This document shows positions 317 to 31,531 of a stretch of DNA of 64,000 nt, in pieces. The stretch covers positions 13,418 through 77,417 of the forward strand of contig WGFM01000006.1 of NCBI GenBank assembly GCA_015492245.1. Direction: 5' to 3'. Numbering within the stretch: position 1 is the first letter of the stretch; every line of letters begins with the position of its first letter. Source of the DNA: Deltaproteobacteria bacterium. GTDB lineage: Bacteria > Desulfobacterota > GWC2-55-46 > DRQE01. Both the position numbers and the translations under genes were made by a program. The notes under the pieces are model-generated. The model did not search any database and was not told where the DNA came from. It worked only from the letters and a program-made list of their open reading frames with translations.

Positions 317-444
317 ATCATCTGCTAACAGACATCCTTATGCGTAAAATATCCTTTTGGATATATCATATTATTTTACCCTTTAAAAGTCTACATTTGC
401 AAGGAAAAACCCCCACCATGGAGGCCAAATACATGAAAAAAACT

Positions 445-2193
445 CTACCCCTTGTGGCCTATCTCGTAGAGGCTGAACCCCCGTGCACTGTAGAGCATTG
501 TAAGGTGATCTCTAAAGAGGCCTGAAAGAAGGGCAAGCCCTCTGACATCGAAGTTGTCATAGGAGAACTTCTCGAAAAGATGGTTGTTTATGAATATATG
601 CGTGAATCCCTTTCTGGACAGCTTATCCCTTAGTTCATCTGATGTCCTGCTCCCCATTACAAGCCTTATAAGGTTTTCTCCAAGCCTTCCTTCGTAGTAG
701 TAATCTCTCTGCCAGTAGTAACCCCTCTCGCCTGTAAAGAAGAATATGACCCTTGCATCTTCTGGAAGATTTCTGTTTGCCCACAGGACAACCTCATAGT
801 CGGGCAGCACCCTCAAAAGGTAGGCATCCCTGGTCTCCCTGCCGGTAACATATCCCAGAGGTCTGTACCTCTCATACAATCCATATACATAAGAGAGGTT
901 GAACAGAAACATGGCTGCCAGAAGCAGGACCACCACATGCCTTGCATACCTCCTTTCAAGTCCCTCCTTTATGGCAAGGGCAACCAATATGATGAAAACG
1001 GCAAGGGCAGGCAGTACATATCTTGTGACGAGATCTGTAGTGAAAAAGGCTACATAAAGGTATAAAAAACAAAAACACACAAGATAGCCGAACCACCCCT
1101 TCTTTTTTCCTACCAGAAACATCAGGGGGATGAAGGCAACAAACACAGGGTTGAGCACCCCATCGAAGTGCTGCATGCTTGAATCCCTTCCCTCGAGAAA
1201 GATCCTGAAAGGCACAAGGAGTATGTCCAGTGTATTCTCTCCATACAGGATATACCTCTTCTCAACAGGTGAGAGTGCCTCACCTATATAAAGCCTGTCT
1301 ACACCCTTTATCATGCCACCCATCAGGGGATGGAAGGGGTTGCCCACCCATATATAATTTCTTATAAGATATGGCAGAAACAACAGAGCAGGCACAAGAG
1401 AGTAAAGAGAAAACTCCTTGATACCAGTGAGCAGGCCCTTTTTTCTCGTGGAATACCAGAGCACAAAGACCGAAAGGATAAAGACCGTTACCGCCCCGTT
1501 ATACTTTACCCCCACGGCAAACCCACCGGCCATGGCAGAAAACAGTAGATACCTCTTTCTATCCTCATCCATCCACTTAAGCAGAGCCACCACAGAGAGG
1601 GTCGAGTAGAATGTAACTCCGAGATCAACATAGGCACTTGCAGATAGCTTCACCACCACAGGGGTGGAGAGAAAGACGAGGGCAGCCACAAGCCCATAGA
1701 AGGTGGACACCTTCTCTCTTATATAGTCGTATATGAGCAATGCCGTAAGAAGGGCGAATCCAAAGTGTATATACCTGGCAGCTGTGTCTATACCCAGGTA
1801 GAGGGGTATGATATAGAGGTAGTCCAGATTCATGGGCAGGTAAGAAAAACCCATGAATGGTATCTCGTAGATACCGCCTGCCTCAAGATATAGCTCTGGG
1901 ACGGCAAGGTGGTGTATGAGGGCATCCCTTGAGACAGGTGGCGTGGATACAAGGGGCAAGATGAGAAGAATCACCCCCACTATAGAGGCTGAAAGTGCGG
2001 CCTCCCTTGCACCCGATCCTCTGAAGTATGAAGGCAGGCCACCAGATAGCACTGCTATTGCGGCAATCACTGCCAGCCCTGGCAGAACAACGAACCCACC
2101 CCGCAGAATACCCAGATGCCCTACAAGGAAGACATACATGCTTGCAAGCCACAGAAAAGAACCAGTGGCGAAGAGTCTATGGAAAAGCGACAT
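445..2193 (-). CDS. GT-C fold membrane glycosyltransferase (GT39/GT83 ArnT/PMT-like), polytopic with a C-terminal soluble domain
   Basis: 582 aa with about 11-13 hydrophobic segments. The first loop has an R-D-A-L-I-H-H acidic/His motif, and a ~150-aa hydrophilic domain sits at the C-terminus. It lies directly upstream (same strand) of the GT2 gene. Confidence 0.5.
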   Translation of the reverse strand: MSLFHRLFATGSFLWLASMYVFLVGHLGILRGGFVVLPGLAVIAAIAVLSGGLPSYFRGSGAREAALSASIVGVILLILPLVSTPPVSRDALIHHLAVPELYLEAGGIYEIPFMGFSYLPMNLDYLYIIPLYLGIDTAARYIHFGFALLTALLIYDYIREKVSTFYGLVAALVFLSTPVVVKLSASAYVDLGVTFYSTLSVVALLKWMDEDRKRYLLFSAMAGGFAVGVKYNGAVTVFILSVFVLWYSTRKKGLLTGIKEFSLYSLVPALLFLPYLIRNYIWVGNPFHPLMGGMIKGVDRLYIGEALSPVEKRYILYGENTLDILLVPFRIFLEGRDSSMQHFDGVLNPVFVAFIPLMFLVGKKKGWFGYLVCFCFLYLYVAFFTTDLVTRYVLPALAVFIILVALAIKEGLERRYARHVVVLLLAAMFLFNLSYVYGLYERYRPLGYVTGRETRDAYLLRVLPDYEVVLWANRNLPEDARVIFFFTGERGYYWQRDYYYEGRLGENLIRLVMGSRTSDELRDKLSRKGFTHIFINNHLFEKFSYDNFDVRGLALLSGLFRDHLTMLYSARGFSLYEIGHKG

Positions 2194-2259: not shown

Positions 2260-2448
2260 TCAGGCCATCTTTCCCTGTCTTGCCAGAAAATCCCCCACTG
2301 CCAGCCTCACCATGGCACTAACGCTCCAGCGCTGTCCGAGCCTTCTGGTATACTCGCTGGCAAGTTCCCTGAGAAGTGCGAGCTGGTCTTCCTCTATGTT
2401 CACACTTATCTTTACGAGTTTCTCTTCGTGATGGTGGTGTTCTTTCAT
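2260..2448 (-). CDS. Ribbon-helix-helix (CopG/Arc family) DNA-binding protein with His-rich N-terminus
   Basis: 62 aa. MKEHHHHEEK, then an RHH-like beta-strand/helix pattern (KISVNIEEDQLALLRELASEY..). It overlaps the upstream gene by 4 nt. Confidence 0.45.
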   Translation of the reverse strand: MKEHHHHEEKLVKISVNIEEDQLALLRELASEYTRRLGQRWSVSAMVRLAVGDFLARQGKMA

Positions 2449-2843
2449 CTTTCCTCCGCCTTGAGTAGTTTAAGCCCCCTTCTGGCATCCTCTGCAAGTG
2501 GACTTTCGGGATACTCCCTGAGGAGTCTCTCCATATTCTCTATGGCCTTCTTCCTCTCTCCTTTTTCGATGTGCTCCAGGGCATCCTCCATGAGGGTGAG
2601 TTCCTCCTTGCTTATGCTGATGTCCTTCCAGTAAAGCCCTTCGTCCACATTCTGTTCCGCTCCCTTGACTCCTGCTATGGCCTCTCTGTTCTCCTTCTTA
2701 TCATCCTTGCCCTTGGTAACCATCTTTAGTTTGTGGGACACATTCTTGAGCCACACACTCAGTGCATCCTTAATACCTTCAGAAGCCATTGCCCCGGCCG
2801 AAAGAAAAAGCATAAGGATTGCAAACACGACTAACCTTTTCAT
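2445..2843 (-). CDS. Secreted hypothetical protein (signal peptide, Lys/Glu-rich helical)
   Basis: The N-terminus MKRLVVFAILMLFLSAGAMA is a type I signal. No recognisable domain. Confidence 0.4.
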   Translation of the reverse strand: MKRLVVFAILMLFLSAGAMASEGIKDALSVWLKNVSHKLKMVTKGKDDKKENREAIAGVKGAEQNVDEGLYWKDISISKEELTLMEDALEHIEKGERKKAIENMERLLREYPESPLAEDARRGLKLLKAEER

Positions 2844-2861
2844 CCCTGCAAACCTCCTTCT

Positions 2862-5327
2862 TTAACCATTTATATCTGTATACAGTGTTATGTATCTGTC
2901 TTTCAGTTTTCCGTCTATCTCAACAGCCTTCATAAAATAATACTTTGCCATCTTGCGGTTGCCAAGCCTCATGTAGGCCCGTGCAATGTTTACAAGTATG
3001 TTGCCATCCTCCTTGTCCAGATTATGTGCCATCTTGTAGTACTTGATGGCCCTTTCGTATCTTCTTTTAAGGTAGTATATATTGCCCATGTTGTTCAACA
3101 GTGCTGGCTTTCTATCAAGTTCCGGAATGCTTCTTGCCACTTTCAGCGCTTCGTCGAGCATTTCCTCCATGGCATAGAATCTTACCAGTCTAACAAGCCC
3201 CGGGGTTCCGAGCCCTTCGAGTTCTTTCCTTACATGTTGAAGCCTCTTTTTGCGGAACCTTTCGAGTTGCCTGGAAAGTCTCTTCTCTACAGCTCCTCTG
3301 TCCAGCTTTACAACAGCTGTTCTTGCTGGCAGGTTGGGGGCAAGGTAGAGGGCGCGTGCCTTTTCAAACTCCATTATCCTGGGCTTGTTGCTCAACCTCC
3401 TGTAGTTTTCCACACCTTTCTTCCATGCCTCGGTAAAGGATGCTCCCACAACTGTTGTCTCCACAGGTATCCATATGGCACCCCCATAGGGCACATAGCT
3501 TTCTTCTGGAAAGCCGAAGTATATGCTTTCATCTTCTGATACACCGGTATCAAACATGACGAACACATGGCCTGGCACATCCACAATGGCTGTCCTTATG
3601 CCCACGGCCTCGAGCAATGAGGAATAAAGGCTTGTAAGGTCATCGCAGTCGCCAACCTTTCTTACGATGGTCTCCCGTGGAAACTGCACAAAATCAACCA
3701 CCCCCTTGAGTCCAGATACAACGCTGTAGGGTGAATTCGGGTCCTCCATGTAGGATATGCCAAGAACCCCCATGGCCTCAAAGAGGGCGGCTGCCTTGAC
3801 GAGATTACGGCCGAGCCCTCTATCGCTGTAACCTACCACGGCATCTGTAGCAATATCAACTACAACAGGGTCCCTCGGTGTTATAAAAGAGGCTATCTTC
3901 CCCTTGTCATCCCACAGGAGGGCATGTTTCTCATACACATATATGGGACTGTTGAGAGTAACCACACCTCTCTTTCCCCTGTCCATATAGGTTACCTTTA
4001 TCTCGGACTGTATGAATGTGTTGTCTGTTATGTCGAGTATCTTGCTGTTGAAGACTATGTTCAGGGTTTTCTTTACAGTCTTTCCGGGTGGAAGCTTGCC
4101 TACGGTTATCCTTGTGGGATAGTCTATATACTTTTTGACAGCTATGGATATGGTTACATCACCCAGGGGGTTAGATGTTGTATTCTTAAGTACTATCGTT
4201 CCTGCAGGATGAATTGCATAGTATTTGTAGTTACTGGAGAAGACCTTATCGAAACTGACCTCTACTTTAAGTGGTGGCTCTGCACCCCCATGTTCTGAAA
4301 GCCGTTTCTTTACAGAGCCCATGGTGGTATGAAATCTATCGAACAGTTTCGCATAGGAGTTCTTTATGGCTGTCTTCCTGCCCATCGCATCGTCCACATG
4401 GATTATTCTGGTTCTGTCCCTGAGATGGGCAAGTGGTTTGAAGGGGTGCACACTGTAGAGGGTCATCTCAACCCTACCATCAAACTCCTTGAAGTTACCA
4501 CCGAGCACCTGCTCGCCTATCTTTATATCCTCTACAAGTTCCACAGCCACATCCACAGCCTTAAGTTTATCCTGTATCTTGTAGAACTCTCCCCTGCCAA
4601 GGTCCTCCACCCTGTATCCATGTGAGGCAAGCTCTTTTATAAAGTCCTTTCTATATCTATCGCTTCCCCTGTGGGTTATAACCCCTATCCTCAACCCCTT
4701 CTTTTCTGTTCTTGAGTCCACCTTCTCCTTGAGTCTTCCCGTATCAACAAACATCATGTAGATGGCACCATCTTCTGTCTGATGGATGGTCTCTCCTGTA
4801 AGCACATAGTCGGGGATATGTGGAAGCACCTTTTCTCTGAACAGTCTTATCTCCTCTGTGGTGGGCTCTTTTATGAGTTCATAGAAGGCCTGCTTGAGTG
4901 CCTTCATTTCCACCACCTTTGATACCACACCAAGACTTGTGCCACCTTTAGGCCTGTTCTCTACGAATACCACGGCCACCCCTCCAGGAGGCTTTTTGAG
5001 AAAAGGCAGCCTCACCCCTGATGAGCCTTTTATGGCAGCCATGGTAAGAAGGCTTATATGTTCACTTCTACCCTTGAGTCTTTCAATGGCTTCCATCTTT
5101 CTGCCTGTTCTGAAAAGTGAATAGGCGAGCGTAGCATTCAGAGCCGGGTTATCCTTCTCTTTGAGCAACTCTGTGGCAGAATCTGCTGCCTGCGCCCAGT
5201 TTCCGTCGAGAAGGGCTCTGGCAAATCTATCCTTTGTGTCTGTATCAGGGCTGGCTGGTATTGCCTGGGTTGTCCAGATAACGAGGAGAAAGGTTAAAGG
5301 GATTAGAAGCCCCCTTATTCCATGCAT
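2862..5327 (-). CDS. Secreted transglutaminase-like cysteine protease domain protein with C-terminal TPR repeats
   Basis: 821 aa with a signal peptide. The motif GDCDDLTSLYSSLLEAVGIRTAIVDVPGHVFVMFD is the Cys-His-Asp transglutaminase-like core. The C-terminus has TPR-like repeats (GNIYYLKRRYERAIKYYKMA..ARAYMRLGNRKMAKYYF). Confidence 0.6.
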   Translation of the reverse strand: MHGIRGLLIPLTFLLVIWTTQAIPASPDTDTKDRFARALLDGNWAQAADSATELLKEKDNPALNATLAYSLFRTGRKMEAIERLKGRSEHISLLTMAAIKGSSGVRLPFLKKPPGGVAVVFVENRPKGGTSLGVVSKVVEMKALKQAFYELIKEPTTEEIRLFREKVLPHIPDYVLTGETIHQTEDGAIYMMFVDTGRLKEKVDSRTEKKGLRIGVITHRGSDRYRKDFIKELASHGYRVEDLGRGEFYKIQDKLKAVDVAVELVEDIKIGEQVLGGNFKEFDGRVEMTLYSVHPFKPLAHLRDRTRIIHVDDAMGRKTAIKNSYAKLFDRFHTTMGSVKKRLSEHGGAEPPLKVEVSFDKVFSSNYKYYAIHPAGTIVLKNTTSNPLGDVTISIAVKKYIDYPTRITVGKLPPGKTVKKTLNIVFNSKILDITDNTFIQSEIKVTYMDRGKRGVVTLNSPIYVYEKHALLWDDKGKIASFITPRDPVVVDIATDAVVGYSDRGLGRNLVKAAALFEAMGVLGISYMEDPNSPYSVVSGLKGVVDFVQFPRETIVRKVGDCDDLTSLYSSLLEAVGIRTAIVDVPGHVFVMFDTGVSEDESIYFGFPEESYVPYGGAIWIPVETTVVGASFTEAWKKGVENYRRLSNKPRIMEFEKARALYLAPNLPARTAVVKLDRGAVEKRLSRQLERFRKKRLQHVRKELEGLGTPGLVRLVRFYAMEEMLDEALKVARSIPELDRKPALLNNMGNIYYLKRRYERAIKYYKMAHNLDKEDGNILVNIARAYMRLGNRKMAKYYFMKAVEIDGKLKDRYITLYTDING

Positions 5328-5328
5328 A

Positions 5329-7320
5329 TTATATTACACCTTCTGCCAGTATTTTCTGCATCTGCCGTTTTATTTGTGTGGCATCCACACCCTTGTTTTC
5401 TGCTATAAAGCGTGCCCTTACCAGCTCTATCAGGGATTTTCTAAGGTTGCCACTTTCTTCAAGTCTCAAGGCCTTCTGGAACAGTCGCTTTTCCGCTTCT
5501 GAGAAGATGGCCTTAAGCTTTCCTCCCATCTCTCTTACCACTTCGTCTTCGACGGTTTTAAGGAGTTCCGAGTCGGCAGGTAGATTTGGCAGCCTCTCCT
5601 CTATGTTTATGTCTCCTATGCTGACGCCCTCTCTTCCCTCAGAGGTTCTGGCCTCCTTCTTCTCCACCACATCCACATATATGATGTTACCGTTCGAGTC
5701 CACTACCCTCCATCCAACCGACACGCTGGCCACCTTTTTGTAGTGTGTAATCCTGTATTTCACATTTTCGAACACTGGTTCATCAATATACTTTGGTGGC
5801 TCACTGCCTGTCCTTCCCTTTGCGGCCCATTCCTCGTATGCAGGATTAAGTGCTTTTCTGGTGCCCACCTTTGCCCTCATGGTCTTGAAGTTGTTGAGAA
5901 CAGAGTTCTCCACCCTGTAATCCGTAACACTTCCTATGATCAGATAATCAGCCCCTATGAGTTTCAGTATATCCCTTCTCAGCTCTCCTCCCTGCAGTGC
6001 CTTCACCTCTTTCTCCTTTATTATTGCCTCCATGGCACTTCTCTCGAGTATCTTCACATCCTTTCCCAGTTCATTGTATACATAATAGAGTATCCGTGTT
6101 GCGAGCATATTGCCTGCGTCCACATTGTAGGAGGGTCCGCTGAAGGGTATTATCGCAAGGGTTGGATGGGAATATCTTTCGAGCTCTTCCTTCCAGCCAT
6201 CCTTGAGGGCTATTATCTCTGGATAATCGGGCTCTATCATTGAGACAACATCGACATAGAGGTATGCTATCTCCTTTTCACCATTCTGCCACTCCTCTTT
6301 TGCCCGCACAAACATCTCGTCAACCACCCTTTTTATCTCTCCTGCTGGCACGGAGACATGTCTTCTCTTCTCGTAGGGCAATCTCTTGATCAGGGATATG
6401 GCCTTAAGGAATGTTGCACCAGAAGAGAGCAGGAGGTCCTCTCTTGAGAACTCCATCCCTGCCCTTAGAAGCCTTTCTGCCCACATCTGCAGTGTGGTAT
6501 TTATCAATTCTGTTGCCTCTTTCGTATCGCTGTAGGCAATGGAAAGTTCGGCAAACCTCAAGGCGCGCTCGAAGTCTTCCTTCCTGAAGGCCCTCTTTGC
6601 CTCTTCAATGTGATACCTGTAGGAGTCCCTGTCTTTTGTCAATGCCAGTTCTTCTTTTACATCCCTGAAGGCAGGGTCTATCTCGTAGATGGTGCCGAAG
6701 ATCCTGTGTGCAACCTGCCATCTCTCTTCTTTCCTTGCCCTTAGACCCTCTTCATAGAGTGTGCTGAGAGTTCTTGCCCTGTATTCCTCAACAACTGTCT
6801 GCCTCGATGGATCAAGCCTTACAGCCTTCTCAAAAAGGACAAATGCCTCCTTAATCCTCTTTGCTTTCTCCTCTGTGTAGGCCTTTTCCATGAGGTCTCT
6901 TACTGTCTTAATGGTATTCTCTCTCTTCTTCTCTATCAGGGCTTTCACCCCTGTAATATCCACAGAGGGGTTTATCTTTACAACCTCATCAAGCTCTTTT
7001 TCGAACTGTGCGAGCCTTTCCATTGGCACGGGCTCTGGGGTATCTTCTACAGCCATCGTCAATGTCCTGAGCCTCTGGCCTGCGTACTTGCGGCTTGTCT
7101 CTTCCATCTTGTTGCAGAGAAAATCCGAAGGATTCTTTGCACAGAGCTCTTTGAGTATTCCATATGCGTCTGCGTATCTACCCTGCTTGATGGCACTGTA
7201 GTAGTCTTCCCTCTGTTTGAGCGCCACACAACTGTAGAGGAATGCCACAAGGGTTATAAGTATGATACCTCTCACCATGCTTTCTTCTATAAGCCCCCTG
7301 TCTCCTTTATATATATTCAT
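5329..7320 (-). CDS. Lipoprotein with long helical (TPR-like) N-terminal region and C-terminal CsgG/LpoB-fold domain
   Basis: 663 aa. Lipobox-like LVAFLYSC. The C-terminal half reads LAIIPFSG..NMLATRI..ADYLIIGSVTDY..VSVGWRVVD, which resembles the CsgG family. A 2-nt gap separates it from the downstream transglutaminase-like gene. Confidence 0.5.
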   Translation of the reverse strand: MNIYKGDRGLIEESMVRGIILITLVAFLYSCVALKQREDYYSAIKQGRYADAYGILKELCAKNPSDFLCNKMEETSRKYAGQRLRTLTMAVEDTPEPVPMERLAQFEKELDEVVKINPSVDITGVKALIEKKRENTIKTVRDLMEKAYTEEKAKRIKEAFVLFEKAVRLDPSRQTVVEEYRARTLSTLYEEGLRARKEERWQVAHRIFGTIYEIDPAFRDVKEELALTKDRDSYRYHIEEAKRAFRKEDFERALRFAELSIAYSDTKEATELINTTLQMWAERLLRAGMEFSREDLLLSSGATFLKAISLIKRLPYEKRRHVSVPAGEIKRVVDEMFVRAKEEWQNGEKEIAYLYVDVVSMIEPDYPEIIALKDGWKEELERYSHPTLAIIPFSGPSYNVDAGNMLATRILYYVYNELGKDVKILERSAMEAIIKEKEVKALQGGELRRDILKLIGADYLIIGSVTDYRVENSVLNNFKTMRAKVGTRKALNPAYEEWAAKGRTGSEPPKYIDEPVFENVKYRITHYKKVASVSVGWRVVDSNGNIIYVDVVEKKEARTSEGREGVSIGDINIEERLPNLPADSELLKTVEDEVVREMGGKLKAIFSEAEKRLFQKALRLEESGNLRKSLIELVRARFIAENKGVDATQIKRQMQKILAEGVI

Positions 7321-8006
7321 TTCTTCTCAAACTTCTTCCTAATATCCTCTTTCCAGTCTCTGTGCTTGTTCATTATTCTGAGCACCTCAAGGGGATCGTC
7401 TGTAACCTTTATTATATTGAGCTCTTCCCTGTCTATGGTACCATATTTTAGCATAGTATTTTCCATGAAGTCGAGTATAGGTGCCCAGTACTCTATACCG
7501 AACAGTATGAGAGGGAATGGATATATCTTGTGTGTCTGTATGAGTGTCAGTGCCTCGAAGAACTCATCGAGGGTTCCGAACCCACCTGGCATACACACAT
7601 ATCCCATGGCATATTTTACGAACATCACCTTTCTTGCAAAGAAGTATCTGAAGTGGAGGGATCTGTTCTGGTAGGGATTTGGTTTCTGTTCTTTTGGCAG
7701 TGTTATGTTGAGTCCGACAGATAGCCCTCCACCGAGCATGGCACCCCTGTTTGCGGCCTCCATGAGGCCAGGGCCTCCACCTGTTATGATCGTATAGCCA
7801 TTTTCTGCAAGTATTTTTGCAACCTCAACGGTCTTCCTGTAGAACTTGTTCCTTGGCTTGAACCTTGCAGAACCAAATATGCTCACCGCTGGTCCTATGT
7901 CTGCAAGCTCTTCGAAGCCTTCTACGAACTCACTCAGTATACGAAAGAGCCGCCATGTTTCTTTCCCCTTAAGGTCATCTATGGTTGCCATTCCATCTAC
8001 TCCCAC
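7317..8006 (-). CDS. LOG family protein (cytokinin riboside 5'-monophosphate phosphoribohydrolase-like / nucleotide nucleosidase)
   Basis: Has the GGGPGLMEA and PGGFGTLDE motifs characteristic of the LOG/TIGR00730 family. Confidence 0.8.
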
Positions 8007-9547
8007 TCTATGGTGCTTGGTGGTTTTGAGCTTATGTCGTATACCACCCTGTTGATGCCTCTTGCCTCGTTTATAACCCTTGATGATATGCGCTCGAGCA
8101 CATCATACGGCACCCTTGTCCAGTCTGCGGTCATGCCATCCACACTGTCGACTATCCTTACGGCAAGGGTATTCTCGTAGGTTCTCTCATCTCCCATAAC
8201 ACCCACTGTCTTTACAGGAAGGAGCACCGCAAATGCCTGCCACACCTTTCCATAAAGGCCTGCCTTCTTTATCTCCTCGAGCACTATTGCATCTGCCTTG
8301 CGCAGTATGGCGCACTTTCTTGGGGTAACCTCTCCGATTATCCTTATGGCAAGCCCAGGGCCTGGGAAGGGATGCCTCTCTACAAGCTCTGCTGGAAGGC
8401 CAAGTTCTCTACCAAGCACCCTCACCTCGTCCTTGAACAGCTCCCTCAGTGGTTCCACAAGCTCAAGACACATCCTCTTTAGAAGTCCTCCCACATTGTG
8501 GTGGCTCTTTATGGTGGCAGAGGGTCCCTTGTGGGACACACTCTCTATCACATCGGGATAGAGGGTGCCCTGTGCAAGGAACTTGACCCTCTTTATCTTT
8601 CGTGCCTCCTCTTCGAACACCCTTATGAACTCGTTGCCTATGAGCTTGCGTTTTCTCTCGGGGTCTACGACACCCCGGAGTTTTTCGAAGAACCTCTTTC
8701 TGGCGTTTATCCTCTTTATTCGCATGTGGAAGTTCTCTCTCAGTGTTGAGTATACCTTCTCTGGCTCACCCTTTCTCAGAACCCCGTTATCCACGAATAT
8801 GCAGGTAAGCCTGTCTCCCACCGCCCTGTGCACAAGGGCGGCGGTAACCGCAGAGTCCACCCCACCACTTATTCCACATACCACCCTGTGGCCATCCACC
8901 TGCTCTCTTATCCCTTCCACCGCATTCTCTATGAAAGAGCCCATGGTCCACAGTGGCCTGCAGCCACATATCCTGAAAAGAAAGTTCTTCAGTATCTTCT
9001 TACCCTTCGGGGTATGCACCACCTCTGGATGAAACTGCACACCAAAGAACCTTCTTTTTTTATCCTTCATGGCCCCTATTACACCCCTTTCGGTATGTGC
9101 AATGGCCGTAAATCCAGCTGGAAGCCTCTCAACCCCATCGCCATGGCTCATCCACACCTTTATGGGTTCATCCCTGAACCCACTGAAGAGGTCTTCTGTG
9201 TCTTCTATGGTGAGATAGGCCGGGCCGTACTCTCGCCTCTCACTTCTTTCCACCTTTCCGCCAAAGAGCCTTGCCGTAAACTGCATGCCGTAGCATATAC
9301 CGAGCACAGGTATGCCGAGATCAAAGAGTACCTTTGAGACCTTCGGGGCACCCCTATCGTGCACACTCGATGGCCCGCCTGAAAGGATTATCCCCTTTGG
9401 ATTAAACCTTTTTATAGCAGACAGTGGTTTGTTGTATGGGTGTATCTCGCAGTATACATGGGCCTCCCTCACCCTTCTTGCTATGAGCTGGGTATACTGG
9501 GAGCCGAAGTCAAGTATAAGTATTCTGTGCCGGTGTATGTCCTTCAT
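7997..9547 (-). CDS. guaA: GMP synthase (glutamine-hydrolysing)
   Basis: 516 aa. N-terminal class I glutamine amidotransferase ([17 protein letters not shown]), a central ATP-PPase with the SGGVDS P-loop, and a C-terminal dimerisation domain ending ..IEWE. Confidence 0.95.
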
Positions 9548-9548
9548 C

Positions 9549-11012
<1,464 letters not shown>

Positions 11013-11972
11013 TTAACCCACACCCCCTTTTCTGTAATATTCTTTTTTCAATGCATCTATTATTATCCCTTCCAGAAGCCCCGCATCGCTTACCTTCATG
11101 GTATAGATGCCAAAGGCCTCCATGCAGGCAAGCACTATGGCTGTGCCCGGGATTATAAGGTCCTCCCTGCCCTTCTCAAGGGAGAGTATCTTATTTCTCT
11201 CCGAGAGTCTCATGCTGGAAAGCCTCTTGTATATATCCTCAACACCCTCATGGGTCAGGATATGGTTGTTTATCCTTTCTGGCTGGTAGACCTCGAGGCC
11301 CTGGGCTATACTTGCAAGTGTGGTTACAGTGCCAGCGGTGCCACAGAGCTCACACCTTTCGGCCGAAAAAAAACCTGAAAGGGCCTCCTTCACCCCCTGC
11401 ACAAACCCCTCTACTTTCTTCTCCAGCCCTTCAAGCTCCTCCCTATCCGGTGGGTCAGACCTCATGAACCCTTCTGTAAGGTGCACCACCCCCATATTCT
11501 CGATACTGATCGATTTCAGTATCCTCTTTTTTCTACAGTATACAAACTCTGTGCTTCCCCCGCCTATATCCACCACAAGGATGTCCTCTTTCTCGCTGGA
11601 TACAACAGAGAGCACCCCCTCTACCGAAAGATGGGCCTCCTCTGTGCCATCTATCACCCTTGCATCTATACCTGTCTCTTCTTTGACCCTTCCAAGGAAT
11701 GCCTCCCTGTTCTTTGCCCTCCTTACCACACTCGTTGCAACCGAGAGTATTTGGTCTGCACCATTTCTGTCTGCGATGGCTTTGAACTCCTTGAGGGCTA
11801 CGATGGTTCTTGTGATGGCATCCTCTGTGAGCCCTTCCTTTTCTGTAAACCCGCCACCGAGCCTTGTTATCCTGCGGCCACGGGCGACATCCTTTGTTCT
11901 TCCTTCATGGTCCACCTCTGCAACCAGCAGCCTCAATGTATTGGAGCCTATGTCTATGGAGGCAAGCCTCAC
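11013..11972 (-). CDS. Ppx/GppA family exopolyphosphatase / guanosine pentaphosphate phosphohydrolase
   Basis: It has the [21 protein letters not shown]-terminal actin-like ATPase motif. The likely start is a GTG preceded by GGAGAAGAAAAG, overlapping the TGA of the upstream gene (GTGA). The longer ORF-track start is probably spurious. Confidence 0.75.
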
Positions 11973-12484
11973 CTTTTCTTCTCCATATAGTCCTTTGCGT
12001 ATTCCACATAGTTTCCTGCAGAGCGCACTATTCTCTCCACCTCTTCGTCCTCGAGCCTTCTTACAACCCTTGCAGGAACTCCAAGTGCAAGGCTTCTGGG
12101 AGGAATCCTTGCACCCTCTGTTACTATGGCACCTGCCCCTATTATGGAGCACTCGCCTATATGGGCATTATCGAGCACAATGGCACCCATGCCCACAAGT
12201 ATCCTGTCCTCAAGGGTGCATCCGTGGAGTATCACGCCATGGCCTATGGTAACCTCACTGCCTACTATGAGTGGGTATATCTCTTTGGTTACATGGAGGG
12301 TGGAGTTGTCCTGCACATTGGTCTTCTCGCCTATCCTTATGTAGTTTACATCCCCCCTTATCACCACATTGAACCACACACTGGAAAAGTCTCCAACCCT
12401 TACATCACCTACAACCCTTGCACTCTCTTCTATGAAGACAGATTCTCCGAGCTCCGGGTATACCCCTCTGTATGGAAATATCAT
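11969..12484 (-). CDS. Gamma-class carbonic anhydrase family / hexapeptide-repeat protein (YrdA/PaaY-like)
   Basis: 171 aa with left-handed beta-helix hexapeptide repeats (VGDVRVGDFSSVWFNVVIRGDVNYIRIGEKTNVQDNSTLHV) and conserved His residues. Confidence 0.8.
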   Translation of the reverse strand: MIFPYRGVYPELGESVFIEESARVVGDVRVGDFSSVWFNVVIRGDVNYIRIGEKTNVQDNSTLHVTKEIYPLIVGSEVTIGHGVILHGCTLEDRILVGMGAIVLDNAHIGECSIIGAGAIVTEGARIPPRSLALGVPARVVRRLEDEEVERIVRSAGNYVEYAKDYMEKKR

Positions 12485-30237: not shown

Positions 30238-31531
30238 CAGCTTCCCTCGCCTTCTTTATTATTTCTTCCTCTTCAAGACCGAAGAGTTTGATGGCCGCCT
30301 CTATGAAGGTATCGCCTTCCACAGAGTGCGCCTCCTGCTTTATGCAGGTAACAGGGTTGTGGAGTATCTTCTTTACCATGGCCTGCGTCATGGCATCGAG
30401 GACCTTTCTTTCCCTGTCTGAAAGGTTCTTAAGTTGCGAGAGTGCCCTTTCAAGCTCTGCCTTTCTTATGCCCTCAAGCCTCTGCTGGAGTGCTATTATC
30501 GTGGGCACCACATCGAGGGACCTGACCCATCGGTATAGACCATCTATCTCTTCTGTCACTATGAGTTCTGCCTGCTCGGCCTCCTTGAGCCTTTCTTTAA
30601 GGTTTGCCTCCACCACGCCCTGAAGGTCGTCTATATCGAACACATAGGCATTGTCTATGTTGTTTACCAGCGGGTCTATGTTCCTCGGCACAGCAATATC
30701 TATGAAGAACATGGGGCAGTGCTTTCTTTCTTTCATCACGCCTGCCACATCCTCGGGCCTTATTATGAACTTTGGTGAGCCTGTGGATGCTATAACTATG
30801 TCTGTGTACTTCAGGTAATGGGAAAACTCTCTGAACATTATGGCCCTTCCCCTGAACTCTTTTGCAAGCTCCACCGCTCTCTCGTATGTCCTGTTGGCTA
30901 TTATGATTTCCTTTACCCCTGCCCCAAGAAGGCTCCGTGCCGAGAGCTCTGCCATCTCACCAGCACCTATGAGCATAACGGTTCTGCCTGTAAGCTCACC
31001 GAATATCTTCTTTGCAAGCTCCACTGCAACGGAGCTTACAGAAACGCTGGATGCACCTATGCGGGTCTCTGTTCTCACCCTTTTTGCAACAGAGAATGCC
31101 TTGTGGAAGAGCTTGTTTATGACCGTGCCTGCCGTATTGCTCTGGACAGCCATACCATAGGCATCTTTCACCTGCCCCAGTATCTGTGGCTCACCCATAA
31201 CCATGGAATCGAGCCCGCAGGCAACCCTGAAAAGATGCCTTGCACAGTCCTCACCTGCATGCACATAAAGATGGTCCTTTATATCATCATAGGGTATGTC
31301 GTGGTATTCGGAAAGAAACTTCTTTACCTCCCACACACCCTTTTCCATATCGTGCACCACACCTATGACCTCTACCCTGTTGCAGGTGGATATGATAACC
31401 GCCTCGTTTATGTTGTAATGGTTAACAAGCCTCCTGAGTGCACGAGGAAGCTCTTCTTCTCTGAAGGCAAACTGCTCCCTTATCTCAACAGGGGCTGTTC
31501 TGTGGTTGAGTCCTACAGTTACTATATTCAT
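30227..31531 (-). CDS. hemA: Glutamyl-tRNA reductase
   Basis: 434 aa. VGLNHRTAPVEIRE start, a catalytic Cys (STCNRVE) and an NADPH-binding GAGEMA. Confidence 0.95.
   Translation of the reverse strand: MNIVTVGLNHRTAPVEIREQFAFREEELPRALRRLVNHYNINEAVIISTCNRVEVIGVVHDMEKGVWEVKKFLSEYHDIPYDDIKDHLYVHAGEDCARHLFRVACGLDSMVMGEPQILGQVKDAYGMAVQSNTAGTVINKLFHKAFSVAKRVRTETRIGASSVSVSSVAVELAKKIFGELTGRTVMLIGAGEMAELSARSLLGAGVKEIIIANRTYERAVELAKEFRGRAIMFREFSHYLKYTDIVIASTGSPKFIIRPEDVAGVMKERKHCPMFFIDIAVPRNIDPLVNNIDNAYVFDIDDLQGVVEANLKERLKEAEQAELIVTEEIDGLYRWVRSLDVVPTIIALQQRLEGIRKAELERALSQLKNLSDRERKVLDAMTQAMVKKILHNPVTCIKQEAHSVEGDTFIEAAIKLFGLEEEEIIKKAREAGGN

Follow-up and report, generated by a model that had tools for sequence, protein, structure and literature searches.

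A conserved, unnamed four-gene cell-envelope operon in Thermodesulfobacteriota

A stretch of 64,000 nucleotides from a Deltaproteobacteria bacterium (GenBank assembly GCA_015492245.1, contig WGFM01000006.1, positions 13,418 to 77,417 of the forward strand; hereafter the window) contains, close to its beginning, three adjacent genes coding for exported proteins of 663, 821 and 132 amino acids (aa). This raised the question whether the three genes form a functional unit, and if so, which role such a unit might have at the cell envelope. An initial annotation, made from the sequence alone, had described them as a three-gene envelope module and as a candidate assembly or secretion system. The three open reading frames (ORFs) were confirmed at 7320..5329 for an outer-membrane lipoprotein (663 aa), at 5327..2862 for a secreted multidomain protein (821 aa) and at 2843..2445 for a small secreted partner (132 aa); all window coordinates given here refer to the minus strand. 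The grouping of the three genes stood, but a fourth gene at 2448..2260, coding for a His-rich 62-aa protein which resembles ribbon-helix-helix (RHH) proteins, had been missing from the list. The module is an autonomous, conserved and unnamed four-gene cell-envelope operon.

The favoured reading of this operon, to which a probability of about 0.4 is assigned, is that an outer-membrane-anchored scaffold docks a transglutaminase-fold protease, which acts on the small protein. The module would then consist of two sub-modules joined by the 821-aa protein. This make-up, like the FlgT-like domains of the 821-aa protein, was overlooked in the initial annotation.

Conservation of the gene module

Homologues of the encoded proteins at 29-91% identity were found to retain length and order, showing that these are real genes and not chance ORFs. 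In public records the proteins are named only 'hypothetical protein' or 'tetratricopeptide repeat protein', and no Pfam or NCBIfam family spans the whole lipoprotein, the enzyme core or the small protein. By word-indexed protein search, five relatives were identified for the lipoprotein and 12 for the 821-aa protein, and a further search with a profile of the close relatives of the 663-aa protein returned only the five known proteins. By exhaustive profile search, the family of the 663-aa protein comprises 127 clusters at E<=1e-30, most of them with a length of about 650 aa, and 305 clusters at E<=1e-10. The profile of the 821-aa protein was searched against 185,579 species genomes, resulting in 147 loci, 80 of which were analysed.

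For the comparison of gene order, loci from the genome scan and from exact protein look-up were pooled, and a full homologue of the lipoprotein was defined by more than 500 aligned residues. Such a homologue is present in 19 loci from about 15 distinct lineages, all of them Thermodesulfobacteriota or 'Deltaproteobacteria' metagenome-assembled genomes (MAGs). The genes for the 663-, 821- and 132-aa proteins are adjacent and in unchanged order in 19/19 loci, with identities to the window proteins of 29-70%, 32-69% and 34-72%, respectively, and the gene order is held in every relative with sequence on both sides. The conservation of the three-gene order in relatives, on which the initial annotation had made its module depend, was thereby established. 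The divergence of the three proteins is correlated (r 0.90-0.98), which reflects co-inheritance only and is no evidence of a physical interaction.

The flanking genes vary by lineage. In one subset, guaA and a LOG/TIGR00730-family gene are located upstream of the triad, while the LOG gene is not found upstream in L010, L013-L017 and L089. A dCTP deaminase gene is located downstream in L010 and L014, the prolipoprotein diacylglyceryl transferase gene lgt stands just upstream of the triad in L016, and in L089 and L090 the triad lies between unrelated genes of the opposite strand, a divergent DEAD helicase gene and a convergent PEP-CTERM gene. Since the flanks vary and the triad is constant, the triad is the conserved unit, and the synteny with guaBA and LOG is lineage-specific. 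The LOG gene is a lineage-specific neighbour outside the module, and a functional tie of the module to guaBA/LOG was rejected for this reason. In 12 of these 19 loci, which represent 7 distinct relatives, the triad is followed by the gene for the 62-aa protein; it was found only in L001-L009, L011 and L091.

Predicted architecture of the encoded proteins

In the 663-aa protein, a lipobox L-x-[SGA]-C was identified. Its cysteine, Cys31 (codon 7228-7230), is invariant in close relatives and present in 98% of 119 full-length family representatives. The AlphaFold2 (AF2) model of the protein, based on an alignment of 5 sequences, has a mean predicted local distance difference test score (pLDDT) of 84. 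In this model, residues ~40-385 (6166..7203) form a solenoid of helices only, resembling tetratricopeptide repeats (TPRs) and predicted with a pLDDT mostly above 90, for which Pfam TPR_2 and TPR_19 matches and Foldseek matches to the TPR superhelices of SPY/OGT were obtained. The solenoid is followed by an α/β domain (residues 387-606, 5503..6162), which was assigned to the CsgG/PelC/GNA1162 superfamily by Pfam, Foldseek and AF2, and which contains long strands at 459-491, 511-541 and 546-564 with four C-terminal helices beyond. Pfam CsgG (PF03783) matched with 32.4 bits against a gathering threshold of 20.8, covering residues 423-471 only, which correspond to positions 55-104 of the 210 positions of the profile. 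The lipoprotein with a long helical N-terminal region and a CsgG-type C-terminal half, as proposed in the initial annotation, was thus borne out by the lipobox, by Pfam and by AF2.

A PDB sequence search with the 663-aa protein gave TPR or chance matches only. The Foldseek matches of the model, TPRs aside, were all to outer-membrane-associated α/β proteins, with a probability of 1.0 and E-values of 3e-3 to 2e-2. The highest template modelling (TM) score, normalised to the target, was obtained for GNA1162 (4hrv, 0.67), followed by PelC (5t10, 5t11 and 5t0z, 0.44-0.57), HpaA (8t8d, 0.41), CsgG (4uv3 and 6l7a, 0.39-0.42) and FlgT (3w1e, 0.26). Judged by the predicted structure, the assignment of the C-terminal domain to the CsgG/PelC/GNA1162/TolB-N-like fold class holds at the superfamily level, which agrees with the fold suggested in the initial annotation.

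Within the α/β domain, residues 471-530 (5731-5910) form an extended β-hairpin. The family-average Kyte-Doolittle values of its faces are -0.8/-1.5 and -1.7/+0.5, charged residues make up about one third of it (19/60 in the window protein), and its tip is conserved, with N492 at 97%, P493 at 82%, W498 at 91% and P508 at 96%. In a test for amphipathic transmembrane β-hairpins, no lipid-facing hydrophobic face was found. The hairpin thus looks like a soluble interaction element rather than a lipid-facing barrel strand, and the hydrophilic character of both its faces makes a membrane pore of the CsgG type unlikely.

The 821-aa protein carries a signal peptide (residues 1-22) with cleavage after TQA. 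Its AF2 model, based on 13 aligned sequences, has a mean pLDDT of 77 and a predicted TM score (pTM) of 0.43, and shows, in this order, the signal peptide, TPR-like helices at residues 31-100, two α/β domains, a β-sandwich, a mixed α/β domain and a TPR domain. The two α/β domains (residues 117-200 and 213-345, 4293..4979) were assigned from the AF2 secondary structure, and the β-sandwich (residues 353-466, 3930..4271) from the AF2 strands and a weak Alpha_adaptinC2 match. With the β-sandwich begins the widely conserved core of the protein, which is kept from residue ~350 on in proteins of the Gallionellaceae type. The C-terminal TPR domain (residues 677-820, 2868..3299) was identified by Pfam TPR_1, TPR_12 and TPR_19, has a pLDDT of ~90 and matches consensus TPRs in the PDB. 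In L016 (3711-10463), from a 'Proteobacteria bacterium' MAG, the corresponding enzyme protein has 1452 aa, with ~750 additional N-terminal residues without a Pfam match.

In a whole-chain Foldseek search the 821-aa model was dominated by TPRs, and no structure of the transglutaminase fold was among the top 50. The top match other than TPRs was FlgT (3w1e, E 1.9e-7, 417 columns), followed by chain 0 of the LPHT ring (8z5n). A fold search in BFVD gave only TPR and Ig-like viral matches, and PDB sequence searches with the 821-aa protein and its N-terminal domains gave TPR or chance matches only. A connection to FlgT was also identified in the gene neighbourhoods of distant lipoproteins of the 663-aa family, which adjoin Pfam FlgT_N proteins in L088 and L093. 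In L085, the gene downstream of such a lipoprotein codes for a 961-aa protein whose C-terminal domain is homologous to residues ~200-345 of the 821-aa protein (BLASTP 3e-9; 4e-16 with the N-terminal-domain profile in a search of 7 sequences), and the same profile matched the FlgT_N protein of L088 with 20.9 bits. Because of the FlgT fold match and of these FlgT_N or homologous neighbours, residues 117-345 were read as lipoprotein-binding; by fold and gene neighbourhood, they might dock on the lipoprotein. As a separate observation, in L088 (2560-12272) the distant lipoprotein has 765 aa and is encoded between the FlgT_N protein and a 753-aa fn3 protein, while a 989-aa protein with matches to multihaem cytochromes (MtrC/MtrF-like) is encoded ~1 kb downstream, past two small ORFs of the opposite strand.

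Residues 487-660 of the 821-aa protein (3348..3869) were assigned to a transglutaminase-fold (papain-like) domain by invariant residues and a weak Pfam match. The candidate triad consists of Cys561 (3645-3647) in the motif G-D-C-D-D, His587 (3567-3569) and Glu623 (3459-3461). The surrounding sequence 'VDFVQFPRET..RK.GDCDDL…PGH…W.P.ETT' is the most conserved block of the protein, and C561, H587, W619, P621 and E623 are invariant both within the clade alignment and in a 12-sequence alignment covering Thermodesulfobacteriota, Gallionellaceae, Elusimicrobia and Spirochaetales; the stretch QFPRET..RK.G.CDD is likewise unchanged between phyla. In the AF2 model Cys561 opens the helix 561-574 and His587 opens the next long strand. 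PF01841 (Transglut_core) matched weakly at the Cys motif in 12/12 diverse members (best E 7e-5), and by reading of the Pfam consensus, WIPVETT, which includes Glu623, corresponds to the 'W..D-p-T' typical of transglutaminase-like domains. The secreted protein with a transglutaminase-like core and TPRs, which are present at both ends, was therefore described correctly in the initial annotation, but the proposed Cys-His-Asp core has to be corrected, since the acidic residue is Glu623.

In NCBIfam, residues 376-682 matched positions 13-328 of the 1903 positions of NF058533, 'anti-phage protein ProA', with an E-value of 2.4e-15, but its 55 bits fall far short of the 1500 required by the model. This partial match indicates that the β-sandwich and the transglutaminase-fold domain form a reusable module, and nothing more. 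A literature search on 'ProA' found no description of the NCBIfam family.

The 132-aa protein contains a signal peptide, as annotated initially, which is of the signal peptidase I type with cleavage after AMA. It is followed by a helix with Trp31, a Lys-rich linker and a C-terminal helical hairpin resembling BamD/YbgF; in the family of small proteins, the Trp in the helix upstream of the linker is near-invariant. The motif A55-I-A-G-V-K-G61 … Y71-W-K73 (2625-2681) was counted in 77 distinct sequences, giving A(75)-[VAI]-[GA]-G(76)-V(76)-[RK](77)-G(77), followed after eight residues by [VL]-Y(76)-W(77)-K(76), with a reading of TAAG in 26/77. The hairpin, with the pattern 'yP.S.L..DA', gave weak YfiO/BamD and YbgF matches over the last ~40 residues; the BamD/YfiO scores were 22.3 bits against a cut-off of 25 in Pfam and 24 against 81 in NCBIfam, and one hairpin only is present.

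An ORF of ~130 aa homologous to the 132-aa protein is located directly downstream of the transglutaminase-fold gene in 80/84 loci, a pairing seen in Thermodesulfobacteriota, Gallionellaceae, Elusimicrobia and other groups. Of the 80 analysed genome loci, 67 conserve only residues ~350-815 of the 821-aa protein, with identities of 33-39%. These loci belong mostly to Gallionellaceae (Sideroxydans, Gallionella, Ferrigenium and Sideroxyarcus), and the rest to Chromatiales, Thiohalomonadaceae, Elusimicrobia and Spirochaetales. The homologues of the Gallionellaceae type have ~1250 aa, with NHL β-propeller repeats and fn3 at the N-terminus and the core at the C-terminus. No homologue of the 663-aa lipoprotein was found in the 60+ pair loci of Gallionellaceae, Elusimicrobia and others, so that the small protein travels with the transglutaminase-fold gene and not with the lipoprotein. 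Thus, the 821-aa protein appears as a fusion of a lipoprotein-binding FlgT-like half and an enzyme half with its own dedicated small partner. In the flanks of the loci from Elusimicrobia, Spirochaetales and others, no consistent further partner was identified.

In 54 loci of the Gallionellaceae type (e.g. L019, 3440-5644), the NHL-fn3-transglutaminase-TPR gene is immediately preceded by a gene for a membrane protein with CHASE2 and guanylate/adenylate-cyclase domains. In L092, the gene for a CHASE2 cyclase of 34% identity (2623-4725) immediately precedes that of a distant lipoprotein of the 663-aa family. Both halves of the module are therefore separately tied to the same kind of sensor cyclase, which hints at a signalling role. 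No CHASE2 cyclase was found in the window or in the loci of the Thermodesulfobacteriota type.

The 62-aa protein has no export signal. Its His-rich N-terminus (MKEHHHH…) is followed by an RHH-like pattern, and its relatives carry variable heads rich in His, Gly and Asp. A β-strand-helix-helix pattern is visible in the family alignment, and Pfam gave weak RHH_1 matches for 4/8 members (best E 0.004), RHH_3 for 2/8 and MetJ for 1/8, with no match for the window copy; the search of the alignment against PDB sequences gave TPR or chance matches only. From these sequence features, the 62-aa protein is probably a cytoplasmic regulator.

Proposed mechanism and its alternatives

In the mechanism proposed for the module, the 663-aa lipoprotein, with the hydrophilic hairpin protruding from its CsgG/PelC/GNA1162-type domain, would probably oligomerise to a ring or lattice beneath the outer membrane, and its TPR-like solenoid would extend into the periplasm. 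The 821-aa protein would dock on the lipoprotein by its FlgT-like α/β domains, following the logic of FlgT with FlgO/FlgP in the Vibrio H-ring, in which the lipoproteins FlgP and FlgO form rings that hold the FlgT rings beneath the outer membrane (bioRxiv 10.64898/2025.12.02.691832). Docking would place the β-sandwich, the Cys561-His587-Glu623 domain and the C-terminal TPR domain beside the outer membrane. In the most speculative step, the Cys561-His587-Glu623 domain would act as a cysteine protease on the co-encoded 132-aa protein, recognising the segment A-x-x-G-V-[RK]-G…YWK between the N-terminal amphipathic helix and the C-terminal TPR-like hairpin, in a manner akin to LapG/DvhG cutting [T/A/P]AAG after a targeting helix. 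The 62-aa RHH protein might be a cytoplasmic, possibly metal-responsive regulator, translationally coupled to the operon.

For the enzyme and its partner, the closest functional precedent, as judged by comparison, is LapG/DvhG, an enzyme of the transglutaminase fold in the periplasm which has a protein partner of its own. LapG/DvhG proteases have a Cys-His-Asp triad, and the residues on either side of the Cys form a calcium site (D316-C317-E318 in DvhG); their adhesin substrates are cut at [T/A/P]AAG, which follows a 'targeting helix' (PMC13090378). The periplasmic domain of LapD sequesters LapG through a strictly conserved GWxQ loop (PMC4359373). Likewise, acidic residues flank the Cys, with D-C-E in the LapG family and D-C-D in the 821-aa protein (family motif G-[DQ]-C-D-D), a protein partner is co-encoded, the candidate substrate consists of a helix followed by a small-residue motif, and the Gallionellaceae pair is linked to a transmembrane cyclic-nucleotide enzyme. 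In contrast to LapG, the 821-aa protein has no PF06035 match, the third residue of its triad is Glu in place of Asp, and its domain type is embedded in multidomain proteins of 820-1300 aa. Neither LapD nor a type I secretion adhesin is present; the partner is a soluble protein of 130 aa, and the linked signalling protein is a CHASE2 cyclase and not a receptor for cyclic di-GMP.

The scaffold half shares features with three known systems. Like CsgG, the 663-aa protein is an outer-membrane lipoprotein with an α/β core from which extended β-strands emerge, but the Pfam match covers about a quarter of the profile, the hairpin is hydrophilic, a TPR solenoid of 350 residues is fused N-terminally, and the module is without CsgA/B/E/F partners. 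PelC and GNA1162/DUF799, which are small lipoproteins of the outer membrane, belong to the fold class of the 663-aa protein and gave the best target-normalised TM scores (0.44-0.67). The dodecameric ring lipoprotein PelC of Pel export works with the TPR scaffold PelB. In the 663-aa protein, however, TPRs and the ring-type domain are part of one polypeptide, which has in addition a long hairpin and C-terminal helices, and no gene for a polysaccharide synthase or a porin belongs to the module. The Vibrio H-ring (3w1e, 8z5n) likewise combines a secreted protein of successive α/β domains and a β-sandwich with a lipoprotein of the outer membrane that has a small α/β fold; in the module, one polypeptide carries the FlgT-like part together with an enzyme domain and TPRs, a flagellar context is missing, and the lipoprotein has about four times the size of FlgO or FlgP. 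Two further comparisons concern single parts. ProA shares with the 821-aa protein a unit of β-sandwich and transglutaminase fold of ~310 residues, but has 1903 residues, and the module proteins are exported and encoded outside a defence island. With 22-24 bits, a helical hairpin of BamD/YfiO and YbgF (CpoB) matches the 132-aa protein over its final ~40 residues, but the 132-aa protein is not a lipoprotein, contains one hairpin compared to the five TPRs of BamD, and has an N-terminal motif which is absent from BamD/YbgF.

Several results weigh against a docked protease acting on the small protein. The likeness to FlgT is at the fold level only, with a target-normalised TM score of 0.26 and a root-mean-square deviation of 19 Å, no match to Pfam FlgT_N, FlgT_M or FlgT_C was obtained at E<=10 in 11 family members, and some members of the 663-aa family, as in L086 and L092, are without a visible partner. 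For the enzyme domain, PF01841 scored 15.7-17.7 bits in the window protein against a cut-off of 23, and all 12 members remained below the gathering threshold. Peptidase_C93/BTLCP (PF06035) was not among the Pfam matches at E<=1, and the enzyme-core profile searched against the PDB at E<=10 returned TPR or chance matches only and no LapG chain. The pTM of the model is 0.43, with low confidence for residues 528-560 just before Cys561. In the small protein, the window motif is AIAG and that of the clade AVAG or AVVG, and not A-A-G; moreover, GV[RK]G…YWK is more conserved than a simple cleavage site needs, and a docking or inhibitory segment fits equally well.

This last point leads to a possible, if somewhat unlikely, alternative, in which the scaffold is the same, but the enzyme works as an isopeptidase, an amidase or a transglutaminase that forms cross-links, with a different polymer or protein of the envelope as its target (such as peptidoglycan-linked proteins, glycoproteins or matrix), and the 132-aa protein is an adaptor, a sequestering regulator or a pseudosubstrate inhibitor, as LapD is for LapG. 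The invariant YWK and the second conserved Trp31 of the small protein would find a parallel in the binding of LapG by the GWxQ loop of LapD, the conservation of GV[RK]G…YWK beyond the need of a scissile site would be accounted for, and the invariant Lys73 might serve as an acyl acceptor. A GT-C glycosyltransferase is encoded downstream in the window and in six related loci, and the position of the pair behind the CHASE2 cyclase in Gallionellaceae suggests a regulatory rather than a degradative role. Arguing against this alternative, the small protein has no conserved Gln, the module contains no second conserved gene for a candidate substrate, and the glycosyltransferase is missing from many loci. 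Between cleavage of the small protein and a role as regulator or pseudosubstrate, the evidence does not separate.

The remaining alternatives concern the scaffold or the whole module. That the lipoprotein is a CsgG-like secretion channel, with its hairpins forming a transmembrane β-barrel for the export of the 132-aa or the 821-aa protein, is improbable. Such a channel would be in line with the Pfam CsgG match above the cut-off, with Foldseek matches to membrane-inserted CsgG (4uv3, 255-280 columns) and the CsgFG complex (6l7a), with two or three strands of ~30 residues in the AF2 model and with a small secreted protein encoded in the operon. However, both faces of the hairpin are hydrophilic with 19/60 charged residues, the Pfam match spans 50 of the 210 profile positions, and the TM scores to CsgG are below those to the non-pore lipoproteins GNA1162 and PelC; the small protein is without amyloid-type repeats and pairs with the transglutaminase-fold gene in 60+ loci without the lipoprotein, and no CsgE/F-like gene is present in any syntenic locus. 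No curli genes were identified among the scanned window neighbours or the syntenic loci, in a scan that did not extend to small ORFs elsewhere in the window, which agrees with the initial annotation. Its description as an uncharacterised envelope module thus stands, while its interpretation as a secretion system is less likely, in view of the hydrophilic hairpin, the closer TM scores to GNA1162 and PelC and the occurrence of the pair without the lipoprotein. Even less probable is that the module builds an accessory ring for a larger machine spanning the envelope, for example an H-ring-like flagellar disc or a pilus or secretin collar, with core genes elsewhere in the genome. FlgT as the top fold match of the 821-aa protein and the additional match to 8z5n, the FlgT_N proteins next to distant lipoprotein genes, the presence of HpaA and FlgT among the fold matches of the 663-aa protein, and a combination of lipoprotein and FlgT-like protein which mirrors FlgO/FlgP with FlgT would speak for such a ring. 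Against it, no flagellar, pilus or secretin gene adjoins the module in ~15 lineages, the Pfam FlgT families gave no sequence match, and the enzyme domain and its small partner have no counterpart in the H-ring. A component of anti-phage defence related to ProA, finally, is hardly credible. The NF058533 match of residues 376-682 is its only ground; with 55 bits against 1500, it concerns the common unit of β-sandwich and transglutaminase fold, the 663-, 821- and 132-aa proteins all carry export signals, and the stable synteny with housekeeping genes indicates vertical inheritance and not a defence island. PADLOC found nothing meaningful, and membership in the ProA family was effectively refuted.

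A wider proposal, which goes beyond the docked protease and has to be called doubtful, is that the enzyme of β-sandwich, transglutaminase fold and TPR and its ~130-aa partner constitute an undescribed proteolytic signalling pair in the periplasm of several phyla, which is wired to CHASE2 in Gallionellaceae and was grafted in Thermodesulfobacteriota onto a non-flagellar ring of FlgT-like protein and CsgG-like lipoprotein under the outer membrane. The pair could generate or gate the still unknown input of CHASE2, a reverse of the inside-out signalling by LapD and LapG, and the version in Thermodesulfobacteriota would amount to a protease platform of a new kind, anchored at the outer membrane.

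The component folds (CsgG/PelC superfamily, FlgT-like domains, transglutaminase fold, TPR and RHH) are known. In the searched libraries and literature, no description was found of the family of 650-aa TPR-CsgG-type lipoproteins, of the pair of enzyme and small protein, or of their fusion in one operon. If the docked-protease mechanism is correct, it would be a non-flagellar use of the principle of a ring of FlgT and lipoprotein, and LapG would be joined by a second family of transglutaminase-fold proteases in the periplasm that have a substrate or regulator of their own. The unknown signal of CHASE2 could be approached by experiment in the cultured iron oxidisers Sideroxydans and Ferrigenium, in which the link to CHASE2 cyclases is present. 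Should the model fail, a well-defined and widely conserved envelope gene pair would still deserve a family name.

Locus layout and neighbouring genes

The four module genes are part of a run of ten co-directional genes at 12484-445, the stops and starts of which overlap or nearly touch. This unbroken run consists of the genes for a hexapeptide-repeat protein (12484..11969, from ORF and library matches) and Ppx/GppA (12152..11013), of guaB (11012..9549) and guaA (9547..7997), both identified by library match, of the LOG/TIGR00730-family gene (8006..7317) directly upstream of the module, of the module genes, and of a gene for a 582-aa GT-C membrane glycosyltransferase (2193..445; PMT_2/ArnT-like, with Pfam PMT_2 and PMT). 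The ORF for Ppx/GppA is listed with a GTG start at 12152, by which it overlaps the hexapeptide gene by 184 nucleotides; its true start is probably located further downstream.

The stop of the LOG gene and the start of the lipoprotein gene overlap in ATGA. For the latter, 7320 is the first ATG, and Met15 at 7278 is an alternative start. Between the lipoprotein gene and the gene for the 821-aa protein, the gap is 1 nucleotide (TAA-T-ATG) in place of the 2 nucleotides given in the initial annotation. The gene for the 132-aa protein starts 18 nucleotides past the preceding gene, with the ribosome-binding site GAAGGAGG, and its stop overlaps the start of the 62-aa gene again in ATGA. The glycosyltransferase gene is probably the last gene of the transcript. 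Just past it, a terminator-like hairpin with a T-run was identified at 426..408 by pattern match only; from 7320 to the beginning of the window, the minus strand has no other terminator-like site outside coding regions, and one weak match with 6 pairs is located inside the gene for the 821-aa protein (5025..5011). Matches to sigma-70-type promoters were no commoner than in shuffled sequence, and scans of the whole 64-kb window for tRNA, rRNA and Rfam families gave no matches.

Outside this run, a homologue of hemA, coding for glutamyl-tRNA reductase, was identified at 30263-31531. The glycosyltransferase gene is present downstream of the module only in L001-L003, L005, L006 and L009, which are six loci from three distinct lineages. 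In several relatives, an unannotated 357-aa protein and/or an NfeD/S49-type peptidase is encoded past the RHH gene (L001, 11188-16445; L091, 12164-14235; L004, 9364-10437), standing before the glycosyltransferase or in its place. In L003, genes for an additional GT2 protein, a LAB_N protein and a second PMT_2 protein are present.

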